From assembly GCA_013265495.1 (NCBI GenBank), contig MU057521.1, positions 1,438,335 through 1,502,334 of the forward strand: a DNA stretch of 64,000 nt, written 5' to 3'. A program made the translations under genes and the position numbers. Under the pieces are notes generated by a model, which searched no databases, was not told the origin of the DNA, and worked only from the letters and a program-made list of their open reading frames with translations. This DNA is from Vicugna vicugna. Its lineage: Eukaryota. This document shows, piece after piece, positions 10,950 through 57,994 of the stretch (its first letter is position 1; the number at the start of each line of letters is the position of its first letter).

Positions 10950-12268
10950 TTTGGCAATGCTGAAAAGGAAAAGACTCTCAACAAAGAATTTTACATCTGT
11001 CAAAACTCTTCTTTCATAAGGGAAAGAGAATTAAGATAATACCAGATAAAAACTGAGAAAATGTATTGTTAGTAGACCTGCCTTCCAAGAAATGCTAAAG
11101 AGAGTCTTTAAGGGTGTAATGAAAAGACACTAGAGAGTGCCTCAAAGCCATATGAGAAAACAAAAAATACTAGTAAAGGTAACTACATAGATATTATATT
11201 ATTGTATTTTTAGTTTGTAATGCCTCATTTCTGCATAAGAATAAACATATAGGCCACTAAAATAAAATTGAGACTACAGAAATAAACCGATACATCTGTG
11301 ATCAATTAATTTTTGACAAGGGTGCCAAGACCATTCAATGGGGAAAGAATAGTCTTTGCACCAAATGGTGCTGGGACCACTGGATATTAACCTGAAAAAG
11401 AATAAAATTGGACCTTACTTCACACCATGGAAAAAAATAAAATGAGTCAAAGTACCTAAATGTAAGAACTAAAACTATAAAAATCTTAGAAGAAAACAGA
11501 AACAAATCTTCCTGACCTCAGATTTGTCAATGGATTTTTAGAAATGACACCAAAAGTGCAAGCAACAATTAGACTTCATCAACATTAAAAATTTTGTGCT
11601 CTAAAGGATACCATCAAAAAAATGAAAAGGAATCTGTAGAATGGAAAAAGAAATTTGTAAACAATCATTTGATAAGGATCTAGAATCCAGAATATTTAAA
11701 GAGCTCTAACAACTAAAAGACAAACAACCCAATCTAAAAATGGCCTAAAGACTTGAGTAGACATTTCTCCAAAGAAGAAATTTAAATGGCCAACAGGCCC
11801 ATGAAAAGATGCTCAACATCATTATAAAAATGCAAATCAAAACCACAATGAGATACCACTTCATACCAACTAGGATGGCTATTATAAATAAAACAAAACA
11901 AAAACATAAAATAACAGGTGTTGGTTAGAATACAAGAACAATTGGAATCCTTGTACATTGCTGGTGGAAATGTAAAATGATGCAGCCACTGTGAAAAACA
12001 GTTTGGCAGTGCCTCCAAAATGTAAACATAATTCTCATGGTATCGACTTTTAGGTATACTCAAAAGAACTGAAAACAAGTATTTGTACAAGAATATTCAT
12101 AGCAGCAACATTCACCATAGGCAGTAAGAATCCAAATGTCTGCCAGTGAGTGAACGGTTAAACAAAATGTGGTATAGCTATACTGTGAAATATTATTCAC
12201 CCATAAAAATAGTTTGGTTGCACAAATCTGTGAATGTACAAAACCACTGAATTATACACTTAAAAAAC
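10950..12268 (+). mobile_element. L1 (L1MB-like) ORF1 end plus ORF2 3' portion, internally deleted
   Basis: agacctgccttccaagaaatgctaaag; tttgacaagggtgccaagaccattcaatggggaaag; atgcaaatcaaaaccacaatgagataccac; 3' end aaaaccactgaattatacacttaaaa. Confidence 0.88.
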
Positions 12269-40784: not shown

Positions 40785-40887
40785 GTGGAACCCCCGAGGA
40801 TCAGGTTGCCTCGACACCCCAGGGGCGCATGGTGCAGCCTGCACTCTGCGTGGGCTCGTCCGGGATCGAGGTGTCCGGGCCCCCTAA
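40785..40887 (+). repeat. Copy A of a ~100-bp local direct duplication (copy B at 42040-42143)
   Basis: aacccccgagg...ggggcgca..gcactc...ctcgtcc.ggatcgagg.gtccgggccccctaa is shared by both copies. Confidence 0.93.
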
Positions 40888-43066
40888 TGCTCTGATCACT
40901 GCATTTTCTAACATGAGCCAAAGATAGAAGGACAAAAATAATCATCACTGATTACAAATCTGAATTCTGACCTAAAACTTATGGATCAAGTATTGTGGCG
41001 AATTGATACTAAATAGTTTCTCATTGCCAAGCAAAATATAAAGATCAAGTTGCCTGGATCACATGGAAAAATCACCTGGAAGGAACACACGATATCCTGA
41101 TCTAGGCATTAGACTCATTATGGACCTGTGAATATCTAGCAAGATTAATATTACTATTGATTGCCTAAAGTATTTCACCTTATACTTCAGAAATGTGGGA
41201 ATGGGTGACACAGGGTAGAAGATTCCAGGGCAGTTGAGGCTGACAGCAAAAAGGGGCAAGGGCTGTAATAATAAAAGTCCTTACGAGGTTTTCTCCTGAT
41301 TGTAGTGATTTCTACATTGCACCCGAAGAATGCAAGGATATAGCAAATTACACAAAAGAATGGCTTTCATATATTTTGCCAATCTCAAGCGTGTTGAAAA
41401 CAATTGTCTGTCTCCTCGATTTACTCCTGAAACTGATTTAGGCTTCAGTTCAGCCTTTTACTGAATTACAAATTAGCTTCTTAGGGCATGAAGTTGTGAG
41501 GTAAAGAGGGCTCAGCATACACTCTTCCAACAGATGTCCAAATACTTTCAGTATGAGTTTTGGAACGAGCGTTTGTTTGTTTTTACTTAAATCCACTACA
41601 TAGCTGTAATAGGACTTCCTAATTTAAAACATCAAGGATTTTTTTTAAAACGTACCTTTTAAAAAATTAACCCTCAAAAGATCCAGCTGGGTTTTTAAAA
41701 TTTGGACTAAAATTAAAAAAAAAAAGCAACAAACAGATATTTTGGAGGTCTTCAAACCTTAACAATGTAACAAAACTTTGTTTAAATAGTTGAAAGCCTG
41801 TCAAGGTAGCAGCTTCAGTTCCTCGAGCCACAGAAAATTCGCACCGGCACAGGAATTCAAAATGTTAGCAACTGACACAGAAATGTTATGTAGCAAATAA
41901 AATAATTCCCCAGAGATGGTGGCTTTCGGGGGCTTTTGCTAACCGTCATGGAAATAATTTCCAAAGAGCGTTACAGACCAGAGGAAACCGTTGGGCTAGG
42001 GACGTCCACACCAGCGCGTCCCCCTTCGGCCCAGAGGCCGTGAAACCCCCGAGGGTCGGGTCGCCTCCGCGCCCCGGGGCGCACGGTACAGCCCGCACTC
42101 CGTGTGGGCACTCGTCCAGGATCGAGGCGTCCGGGCCCCCTAACCACAGTCACATCCCAGCCTCCCGACCCAGCTCGCGGATGCCCAGCAGAGCGAATCG
42201 ACACAACTGATCCCAGTAAGGTTGTGGTGGGAATTATCCTGTTACTGACTTCCCAGATAGCCGACTGGGCTGTGGAGTGAAGGAGCTCGGGTGAGCGCCC
42301 TCCCTCCAGAGGAAGCCCTGTTCCTGGAACGCGCACCATGCGGCCGCGAAGGGAACCTGGCGGCGCGGTGGGGCGACGGCCCACGCGAGGAGTTGTCAAA
42401 AGCCGGGCTCGGGCCCTTGGGAAAGGTTCAGTTCCCCGCTTCCCTCCTCACACGCGGGTCTCGCACGCTCCTCGCCGCGCTCTGGTGCACCTAGCCTCCG
42501 CCGCACAGTCCCACCAAGTCCTCCACCCCACCACCCCAACCCTCAAGGGACCACCACACATTAGGACCGAGCGGAAGCCGCAGAGAGGGAAGGCAGCTGG
42601 ATAGCAGTTGGGCGTGGCTTCTTGGAGAGAGGCGGGTCCCGGGGGCGGGGAGTTCTACGTAATCATCGGCTGGGGCTGCTGATTGGCTGAAGTGCCTGCT
42701 TGGAGCCCGCAAGTGTCTCCGCCCGGCCCAGCCGCTCCTCCTCCTAGTCGCTCGGTCCGCACCGGCTCGCGGGGGAACCGCTCAGACGCAGCCGCTTCAA
42801 CCCAGTGCGGACGACAGGAGAGAGGGAGGTGGAAGGAGGACACGCTTGGTCGCTTGCTCCCACCAGCACCTGGGCTACCAGAGCCGGCGCTGAGCCCAGG
42901 GGGAGGAGCCGCCGCTGGCACGCCCCGCCTCCGGCCCGGGAAGACGACGCCAGCTACCCCGCCGACCGGCCGCCGCCCCCCTCGCCGGCCGAGACCCGCC
43001 CCTGGCCCGGGCCCTCCCCCAGCGGCAGGCAGGGGCCCTGCTCCTGACGGCCGCGCCGCCACTCCG

Positions 43067-43256
43067 NNNNNNNNNNNNNNNNNNNNNNNNNNNNNNNNNN
43101 NNNNNNNNNNNNNNNNNNNNNNNNNNNNNNNNNNNNNNNNNNNNNNNNNNNNNNNNNNNNNNNNNNNNNNNNNNNNNNNNNNNNNNNNNNNNNNNNNNNN
43201 NNNNNNNNNNNNNNNNNNNNNNNNNNNNNNNNNNNNNNNNNNNNNNNNNNNNNNNN
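43067..43256. other. Assembly gap (190 N) in GC-rich exon 1
   Basis: Run of N seen directly. Confidence 1.
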
Positions 43257-44404
<1,148 letters not shown>

Positions 44405-55056: not shown

Positions 55057-55193
55057 TTTTTTTCTTTTTTTTTTTTTTTGAGGCGGGGGTAAACAAATTT
55101 TATTTTTTTATTTTTAGAGGAGGTACTGGGGGGTTGAACCCAGGACCTTGTGCATGCTAAGCGTGTGCTCTACCACTTGAGCGATACCCTCCC
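55057..55193 (-). mobile_element. tRNA-derived camelid SINE (Vic-1 type)
   Basis: Reverse complement reads GGGAGGGTATCGCTCAAGTGGTAGAGCACACGCTTAGCATGCACAAGGTCCTGGGTTCAACCCCCCAGTACCTCC, with A and B boxes, followed by an A-rich tail. Confidence 0.85.
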
Positions 55194-55284
55194 ACCTCAG
55201 ACATTAAAAATGTGATTTTGATTGGAAAGCAAACGACTTTTTCACAGTTGCTTCAATATAATTTTATGGAGACAGCATGATAAA

Positions 55285-56355
55285 ATTATTTTTATTTATT
55301 TTTTTATTGTGATAAAATATATGTAACAAAATTTGCCATTTTAACCTTTTTTGAGCATACAGTTTAGTGGCATTAAATACATTCACATTGTTGTACCACC
55401 ATCCATTTCCAGAACTTTTCTTTCATCCCAGACTGAACCTGTGTATCCATTAACATGTTGATCACCCACATGGATCAGGTGTGTTTTCTGTGGGGCCCAA
55501 ACTCACACTTCACCACAGTGCAACACACTAATGATATAGGTGCTTATAATTCATCTGTTTTTCCAGTATAAGTGGATTTTTTTTTAATTTCTTATTTTCA
55601 GTTTTCATTTACATCATCAGTTTCTTCACAGCTTTATTTCTTCTTGGAATGTCATTCTGTACAATAAATTCTGCATAATTGGATGAAGGAAGCCCATAGA
55701 CCAGACCACCCATATGTGGGTGACGGGGCCCTTGAGGAAACACAACTATCACCCAGATTTGGGTGATGTAGTGATTAATGTGTTAAGCACCTACTCCTCA
55801 TTCCCCCGTCTGTCCAGCCCCTGGTAGCCACCATTCTGCTGTCTATCAGTGTGCCTGCTCTAGGACCTCATGTAAGTGTAATCATACAGTATTTGTCCTT
55901 TTGTGCCTGGTTTATTTCACTTAGCGTAATGCCCTCAAGATTCATGCATGTGTCAATTTTATTCCTTTTTAAGGCTGAATAATACCCAGTTATATATATA
56001 TACCACATTTTGTTTATCTGTCCATCAGCGGACATTTGACTTGTTTCCACTTTTTGGCTATTGTGAATAATGCTGCTATGAACACTGGAGTACTGATTAT
56101 CTGTTTGAGTCCCTGCTTTCAATTCTTCTGGGTTTATACCTAGGAATAGAATTGCTGGATCATGTAATGATTTTATTTTTTTAAGGACTGTCTTCCACGG
56201 TGGCTCCAGTGTTTTACATTCCCACCAACAATGCACAGGGGTTCCAGGTTCTCCACATCCTCACCAGTATTCGCTGTCTGTTTTTTTGAAAAATAGCCAT
56301 CCTAATGGGTGTGACGTGGTATCTCATTGTAGTTTTGATTTGCATTTCTCTAATG
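55285..56355 (-). mobile_element. L1 (L1MB-like) 3' end, interrupted by the MITE
   Basis: Minus-strand ORF2 C-terminal remnant (HCWWECK...PPWKTV, KDKYCMI) plus typical L1 3' UTR and a T-rich tail. Confidence 0.88.
55454..55782. mobile_element. Non-autonomous TIR element (piggyBac-like MITE) flanked by TTAA
   Basis: TTAA at 55450-55453 and 55783-55786. The termini CATGTTGATCAC and (reverse complement) CACATTAATCAC are inverted repeats, with further imperfect sub-terminal inverted similarity. It interrupts an L1 3' UTR cleanly. Confidence 0.7.
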
Positions 56356-57820
56356 AAAACTTGTTTATCTGCATATTTTGCATTCATTTATATTTGAAGG
56401 TGTGTGTTACTTTTAATTTATGAACCGCATATGAACAATGTGGAAAATATTCTGTAAGAAATGGTTGACTTATTCAACTACACTTCCAATTAACACAGAT
56501 ATTTGAGAGGATTACAAGTGCTTTATTTATATTGATTTTTGGAGTACTTAAACAACAGTTTTAGGCCAATGTGGTTGTATTACTTTGCAGTAAATGATTA
56601 TATGGTCCAGGTTAGGAAATACATGATTCTGTTAATTGTTAGAAGAATTCCTATGTCCACCTGTTTAAAATCAGTAATACTGAAAATTGGTGAATGCCAT
56701 TCAAAAGTTGGATGTTGACTTCAGAGGTCAGTACTCTCCTTCTTGTTAAGTATTTCTGTGTAGACAGTCTTTACTTCCTTGGGTTTCTAGAAGAAGACAC
56801 ACTAGAAGGCTGAAGCTTAGTTCCCAAGAGTATCTATCTAATACGATACCTTATTCCCAGAAATAGAGCCATCAACTGGCGGGCCATACTCACTGTTAGG
56901 CCAGGATGCGTGTTAAACTACAGAACAAAATATTGTAAATTTAGGATTCTTGGGAAGTTTAGGGTCTTCTGTTTACTTCATTTCTTTATACAATTTAAAA
57001 ATGTGTATTATCTATTGCAATTTGTAAAATCGTTGTTGGTTCCTGAAATTGAGATAATTTTGGTCTGAGTAGTGTTTTGAGATTCTGAACATGAAGTGGG
57101 GGACAAGGTGTAAGGCTGTTTTATTTTTCGACTTACCCTGTGGGTTATGGTAACGATACATACACGACAGTGCTTGAATTCCGAGAGGTGTGTGTGAGAT
57201 TACTCGTCATTACTCGAAACAGCAGTTACAGGGGTAAAACTTACTCCAGTTTACTAATGGTAATGATTGGCTGAGCAAACTCCAATTTAGAGCACCCAGT
57301 CCACACACATTCTTGTCTAGAAAGATTTAGCACGTATTCATGATAATACCTTTTAAAAAACTTTTTCCTAACAAAATATCTTTGTTAGACTGCCACTGAA
57401 ACCAAGTAATGAGTAAAAACTACATCATAATATTAAAAATACAAATGCTCTTACATATGGGGAATGGCATAAAGGGTACCATCTTCTTTATGTGTGTTTC
57501 TCTGTTCCTGGTTCACTGTTACAGAGTTTGACATCATTGGCAGTTCTGCATAGCAGTTTGCAGTATGTCCCAAGAAAACTGGGATAGAAAATAATTGATG
57601 GTATATTACCATTAAATAAAGATAAATATTAACACGACTTTCCTTACTGCTCTGACACTGCACCTTTCTGCTCTTAATGTGTCACCACCTATTTGATCTC
57701 TAAAAATTGCTATTAAAATAACTGCTAGTAAAAGTATGACTTTAATCTGGTTTGTTTTTGTGGCATTCACTACTCTTAGTCTATGGTATAAATTAACATG
57801 TGCCTCTCTTTCTCATCTAG

Positions 57821-57994
<174 letters not shown>

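Follow-up and report, generated by a model that had tools for sequence, protein, structure and literature searches.

A TTAA-flanked insert in ZCCHC2 intron 1 of Vicugna vicugna, probably a fossil MITE of the piggyBac type with ends of textbook geometry

piggyBac ends and their relatives in mammals

The termini of piggyBac elements follow a rule, C[C/A/T][C/A/T][T/G/A][T/A/G][T/G/A], and form short terminal inverted repeats (TIRs) of 12–19 bp, in the account given by PMC5381638. Sub-terminal inverted or palindromic repeats, counted in 94 of 157 piggyBac elements, are typical of the group, not obligatory. The left end of Trichoplusia ni piggyBac (LE1-35) is described as opening with a TIR of 13 bp; after a spacer of 3 bp comes a palindromic repeat of 19 bp, to which the transposase binds with its cysteine-rich domain (PMC5861402). 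In piggyBat of Myotis lucifugus, as laid out in the main description of its ends, motifs at 11–16, 55–60 and 99–104 make a 44-bp repeat, each motif being followed after 3 bp by a palindrome, and the other end is without a palindrome (PMC11707139).

Several mammalian relatives are shorter. The mouse lemur elements npiggy1_Mm, npiggy2_Mm and npiggy3_Mm are 240, 348 and 276 bp long (PMC2997546); camelids are missing from the genome panel of that paper. For the human genome, the piggyBac repeats given from Repbase are Looper, MER75, MER75A, MER75B and MER85 (PMC5753468). For camelids, Table 8 of PMC8605555 gives four "piggyBac" MITE entries per genome in four genomes, assigned by Repbase homology. 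Finally, piggyBac and PGBD3 are reported to carry a splice acceptor and a poly(A) signal around their open reading frame and to act as exon traps (PMC2268245).

The insert and its host L1

By tblastn, ZCCHC2 exon 1 runs up to position 44032 of the window (the whole 64-kb stretch of DNA analysed here), and later exons start at 57821, 60523 and 62868; the translation of 43259–44032 is 99% identical to ZCCHC2 of Camelus dromedarius. With exon 1 ending at 44032 and exon 2 starting at 57821, the insert at 55454–55782 lies within ZCCHC2 intron 1, where the sequence-only reading had put it. It is 329 bp long and stands between two copies of TTAA. Its letters and coordinates, its termini, its two sub-terminal palindromes and the extended inverted similarity of its two ends all proved to be as that reading had given them (Table 1). 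The left terminus is CATGTTGATCAC and the right terminus, in reverse complement, is CACATTAATCAC. Elsewhere in the gene region, a run of N (43068–43256), an assembly gap, covers the start of the coding region in exon 1, and a direct repeat of 105 bp with 84% identity (40785–40887 and 42040–42143) lies upstream of the ZCCHC2 CpG island.

Table 1. Features of the insert and of the surrounding L1 3' end, with positions in the window
Feature	Positions	Strand	Remarks
Host L1 3' end, left part	55290–55449	-	55347–55408 matches 12267–12207 of another L1 copy
Left TTAA, putative target-site duplication	55450–55453		
Left 12-bp TIR	55454–55465	+	five final bases shared with a solitary palindrome half-site, 55461–55468
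Left sub-terminal inverted block, GGGCCC at its end	55477–55498	+	17/22 complementary to 55726–55747
AT-rich non-coding interior	55499–55704		no transposase similarity
Inner palindrome	55705–55724		perfect 6-bp arms at 55707–55722; nt 59–78 from right tip; 43 bp inside outer palindrome
Right sub-terminal inverted block	55726–55747	-	
Outer palindrome	55748–55767		perfect 8-bp arms, 4-bp spacer; nt 16–35 from right tip; 3 bp inside TIR
Right 12-bp TIR	55771–55782	-	internal TTAA at 55775–55778
Right TTAA, putative target-site duplication	55783–55786		
Host L1 3' end, right part	55787–56360	-	distal portion has 67–74% identity with three further L1 copies of the window

In the L1 copy at 11819–12267 (minus strand), the homologue of the left flank stands directly before the match to the right flank; the two flanks therefore belong to one L1 3' end. 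The left-flank match scores 45; among 882 control segments, only one that overlaps the same L1 copy reaches that score, and the next best control scores 40. The proposal that removal of the insert and one TTAA leaves a continuous L1 is thus borne out as far as the order of the flanks; the site itself is missing from this copy. Compared with the host L1, the copy has lost roughly 225 bp from its interior, among them the part homologous to the insertion site, so that it shows no empty TTAA. Base-exact continuity across the TTAA is our assumption, based on the usual sequence of L1MB-type 3' ends, and we likewise take the host L1 to be antisense and of the L1MB type. Since the insert is nested inside the host L1, it is the younger of the two. 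A motif from the L1 flanks, meant to find L1 copies spanning the insertion site, had no match in the viral collection and had 7 matches in records titled as bacteria. Just upstream of the host L1, at 55117–55197, there is a short tRNA-derived SINE with a T-rich tail and a weak Rfam tRNA match (23.5 bits), which we take to resemble the camelid SINE Vic-1.

The insert is not a product of assembly. Of 24 data sets listed, 20 (about 2.0–2.1 Gb; 9 studies; 5 organism labels) contain 0.86–1.00 of 44 words sampled from 55400–55840, a stretch of which the insert makes up about three quarters, and 6 of these 20 may be the window's own source. The remaining four data sets are small runs and hold next to none of the words. 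The presence of the words in 20 data sets shows that the insert is real and widely shared.

End geometry and rival explanations

Read inward from 55782, the insert has a 12-bp TIR, a 3-bp spacer, a 20-bp palindrome, a block of 22–23 bp with GGGCCC and a second palindrome. This TIR-spacer-palindrome geometry is newly recognised here and goes beyond the earlier reading. At the 55454 end, the TIR overlaps a single half-site, after which comes the same TGTGTTT..GGGCCC block; to align the two ends, gaps of about 8 bp and about 5 bp have to be allowed, which may reflect either bases lost later or an asymmetry present from the outset. In the TIRs, 9 of 12 positions are inverted matches; each of the other three differs by a transition, and two of these transitions (C>T and G>A) fall in a single dinucleotide. 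Only one CpG is left in the insert against 12.4 expected. It had been proposed that the CATG and CACA ends are products of CpG decay from an ancestral CACGTT terminus; the substitutions and the CpG deficit are consistent with this, and the ancestral terminus itself stays conjectural. Farther in, 55668–55687 may be a third palindrome, much decayed, 37 bp inside the second and 70% complementary to 55550–55569; it may be due to chance.

How do these ends compare with those of described elements? Against T. ni piggyBac (LE1-35 and RE1-63, as described), the 12 + 3 + 20 arrangement is almost the 13 + 3 + 19 of that element, TTAA flanks both, and in both the two ends differ in layout. The palindrome cores differ, CACCCA in the insert and TGCGT in T. 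ni piggyBac, which is described with a full palindrome at both ends, whereas one end of the insert has a half-site only. The insert also lacks the transposase gene that T. ni piggyBac carries. With piggyBat, in a comparison by motif layout, the insert shares palindromes that repeat at about 43–44 bp and at one end only. The insert has two clear palindromes where three are reported for piggyBat, and the GCGGGA motif described for piggyBat is missing from it; piggyBat is autonomous and active, whereas the insert, in the reading that we propose, would be non-autonomous and dead. By analogy with these systems, the outer palindrome is a candidate binding site for the C-terminal domain of a transposase.

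In size the insert belongs with the mouse lemur npiggy elements, which are reported to be likewise non-autonomous and TTAA-flanked, at 240–348 bp, npiggy2_Mm being nearest in length. The 13-bp TIR given in PMC2997546 for npiggy1_Mm and piggyBac1_Mm, which in npiggy1_Mm (240 bp) begins CCCTTT, does not match the insert. The human piggyBac repeats are described as including MITEs that arose by internal deletion, as is proposed for the insert, and are likened to it by description only. MER85, at the 140 nt given in PMC2268245, is told apart from the 329-bp insert by length alone. The camelid "piggyBac" MITE entries have the same hosts and superfamily label as the insert and, as tabulated, can be compared by label only. 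Ends of the Looper/MER75/MER85 group are taken to begin with CCC.

Both ends of the insert begin with C and fit the piggyBac terminal rule. Sub-terminal inverted and palindromic repeats are present and unequal at the two ends, and the 329 bp are short, bounded by TIRs and non-coding, as expected of a MITE. The insert has every feature of piggyBac membership that one copy can show. In our view it is likely to be a non-autonomous piggyBac that is now dead, a MITE comparable to npiggy and MER85 that arose by internal deletion. On this account, the transposase of an autonomous partner, acting in trans, would bind the 12-bp tips and, by analogy, the CACCCA-N4-TGGGTG palindromes. It would excise the element elsewhere and insert it at a TTAA in the old antisense L1 3' end of ZCCHC2 intron 1, and insertion would duplicate the TTAA by the established mechanism of piggyBac (presumably a duplication of 4 bp rather than 2 bp). 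Neutral decay would have followed, by transitions, CpG loss and perhaps deletions of 8 and 5 bp at the 55454 end, and the copy would now be fixed and immobile. Mobilisation in trans and the existence of a family are what we infer from the anatomy of this one copy.

The features are modest singly and distinctive together. The 12-bp TIR alone is weak, chance-level evidence: its 9/12 level is reached by 4 of the 3806 TTAA pairs that lie 100–1000 bp apart in the window, and a degenerate TIR with one mismatch is expected 2.4 times in shuffles. The sub-terminal alignment score is matched in 26 of 2000 shuffles. When the alignment is anchored at the ends, three AT-rich pairs out of 3574 score higher, which puts this pair in 4th place; two others tie with it, one of which uses the TTAA inside the right TIR. 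The hexamer rule is loose, since 18 of the 3806 pairs pass it at both ends; together with at least 8/12 inverted matches it leaves this pair only (1/3806), in a combined test that was defined after the element had been seen. The strand of the insert folds end to end (z = -2.77), and none of 100 shuffles is as stable. The window has 42 perfect 6-N4-6 palindromes, and CACCCA, which occurs twice, is the only arm that recurs in them without being AT-rich. As to the end geometry, a search for perfect palindromes with 8-bp arms lying 13–20 nt in from a TTAA returned 10 rows for 8 different TTAA ends out of 1038, nearly all AT-rich; the geometry alone is therefore suggestive, not decisive.

The sequence-only reading had called the insert a piggyBac-like MITE in an L1, and that claim gains support from the terminal rule at both ends and from a geometry like that of T. 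ni piggyBac and piggyBat. What counts against it is that a single TTAA-flanked site fits a TTAA and a TA duplication alike. The insert could thus be a MITE that targets TA (Tc1/mariner or pogo/Tigger) and reaches one base further out at either end, with a 13-bp TIR starting from A, in a TA within the TTAA. The empty site would be identical in the two cases. Ends of mammalian Tc1/mariner/pogo elements generally begin with C, not A, which would count against a TIR starting from A; a TA duplication also needs the outer T and A to be there by luck, whereas with a 4-bp duplication both ends begin with C and obey the piggyBac rule. Tigger elements are described as having TA duplications and TIRs of 8–33 bp and as widespread in mammals (PMC9219625), and TcMar-Tigger makes up about 0.55–0.6% of camelid genomes (PMC8605555, Table 1). 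The TIR-spacer-palindrome layout matches piggyBac and is the best independent support for it over a TA-targeting MITE, not proof of it. We regard the TA-targeting MITE, the main rival, as unlikely.

Membership of another superfamily (Kolobok or Sola3, both with TTAA sites, or the CAC-ended Chapaev, Transib and EnSpm), or of some unclassified group of DNA elements, seems to us very unlikely. We know of no target-site rule in the groups other than Kolobok that gives TTAA with ends such as these. Kolobok likewise duplicates TTAA, but its termini are given as 5'-RR..YY-3' (PMC9587614), and those of the insert are CA..TG. A trace of Kolobok, UCON29, is reported from the human genome (PMC5753468).

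It is also conceivable that no transposon is involved, and that a single-copy insertion or a rearranged patch came to have TTAA flanks and inverted similarity by coincidence or local duplication. The single statistics, at 26 of 2000 shuffles and rank 4 of 3574, are modest enough to allow this, and no paralogue of the insert was found in the window, which holds one copy, or in the collections searched, which contain little mammalian DNA. In viral contigs, the terminal motif had four matches with no similarity to the insert outside the motif, and the motif made of the two palindromes had none. In metagenomes, the two-palindrome motif had 14 matches, none aligning beyond 33 nt; their CpG ratios of 0.8–1.27 show that they are not mammalian. 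The terminal motifs gave no match in prokaryote genomes or in a further viral scan, and BLASTN against phages and plasmids gave none. These nulls carry almost no weight, since the collections are not mammalian genomes and exact motif matching misses most old copies. Against a non-transposon origin stand the recurrent CACCCA arm, the end-to-end fold and the coincidence, at a break in an L1, of a TTAA pair, the terminal rule, a TIR, a sub-terminal block and two palindromes of the same core. We hold such an origin to be quite unlikely.

Other classes were set aside on inspection: the insert has no TG..CA ends, as a solo LTR would, no 8-bp duplication, as a hAT element would, and no A tail, as a SINE would. 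A right boundary at the TTAA inside the right TIR ties in anchored score and loses the terminal repeat, and was rejected.

The searches of the interior found no transposase remnant that would tie the insert to the piggyBac superfamily. The longest stop-free stretch is 57 codons; in Pfam, none of the four open stretches compared matched a transposase family, and a protein search with the longest gave no candidate. The 32% match of that stretch to a repetitive (tandem-repeat) protein was taken as chance, and a putative start of an acidic transposase on the minus strand had no profile support. No Rfam family was found within the insert, and a terminator-like match is merely the outer palindrome.

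On the plus strand, in the sense of ZCCHC2, there is an acceptor-like site at 55577–55601 with AATAAA downstream at 55663–55668. By a crude score the acceptor has 17 of 20 pyrimidines, against 16 for the real exon-2 acceptor, and it is tied second among 121 YAG sites without an AG just upstream (intron 1 has 466 YAG sites). Intron 1 contains 12 AATAAA, and AT-rich DNA gives such sites by chance. The two sites resemble the splice acceptor and poly(A) signal described for PGBD3 (PMC2268245), and a possible exon-trap relic is a lead only. The clues to orientation conflict, the acceptor and AATAAA pointing to the plus strand and the left-end-like geometry to the minus strand. That the two sites in this copy still form a short cryptic terminal exon of ZCCHC2 strikes us as highly improbable.

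Age and lineage

Two internal estimates of age are available. Over 40 positions, the five palindrome half-sites depart from their consensus twice (5%, 95% interval 0.6–17%), and at the camel neutral rate of 1.28e-9 reported in PMC10162687 this is 39 My, with a range of 5–133 My; the estimate is biased young, because it was their intactness that drew attention to the half-sites. Between the two ends, 3/12 + 5/22 positions differ, or about 12% per end, which gives 94 My; here CpG decay and original asymmetry bias the estimate towards too great an age. The dating, about 40–95 My with wide error, straddles the camel–pig split, given as 64 My in PMC10162687 (camel branch length 0.082–0.083), so that a camelid-specific, an artiodactyl-wide and an older origin are all compatible with it.

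One could go further and propose a horizontal transfer into the camel stem once it had parted from pigs and ruminants (about 40–60 My ago). The incoming piggyBac, its ends of the CACGTT type and its palindromes built on CACCCA, would have left an undescribed MITE family and added a herbivorous artiodactyl to the few non-bat mammals invaded. We find this doubtful; the poorly described camelid or artiodactyl piggyBac wave suggested by the sequence-only reading is likewise conjectural, and a camelid-specific wave is unproven. The Zoonomia account gives only 11 transfers outside bats (10.1101/2023.03.09.531574), a study of horizontal transfer in bats lists, in the portion available, no shared element from an artiodactyl (PMC10162687), and non-cetacean artiodactyls are reported to show about 20 times less recent DNA-transposon accumulation than cetaceans (10.1101/2022.12.28.522108). 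DNA transposons make up roughly 4.4–4.7% of the camel genome according to PMC10162687.

In the literature searched, outside of which lie most subscription papers and Repbase Reports, no account came up of a piggyBac family in camelids or other artiodactyls. A text search with variants of the 12-mer end returned no transposon paper, by title, among the matches listed, and the motif had no match in the supplementary material obtainable for PMC13461360 (four files), PMC10162687 (part) and PMC4971623. The Zoonomia models are stated to be deposited in Dfam (10.1101/2022.12.28.522108), and we put the chances that a Dfam or Repbase model of the element already exists at about even.

What would follow depends on the distribution of the family. 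If it is camelid-specific, it puts a date on a horizontal transfer into animals that are reported to be poor in young DNA transposons. Its insertions would then serve camelid phylogeny as clean markers, either present or absent, and piggyBac end recognition would gain a new palindrome code from its ends. Should the family instead be common to artiodactyls or Laurasiatheria and already in Dfam, the insert is one ordinary fossil among the DNA transposons of camels. Either way, the insert itself is real and, with its textbook end geometry, probably a fossil MITE of the piggyBac type.

Palindromes of the same kind were seen in other settings. Four phage contigs (L001–L004, at about 1501–1528) carry a similar CACCCA-N4-TGGGTG palindrome beside a run of T or A, which looks like an operator or terminator and is unrelated to the insert. 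Three metagenome contigs (L006, L007 and L010) contain tandem arrays of the same palindrome, CACCCAACGTTGGGTG, again unrelated to the insert.
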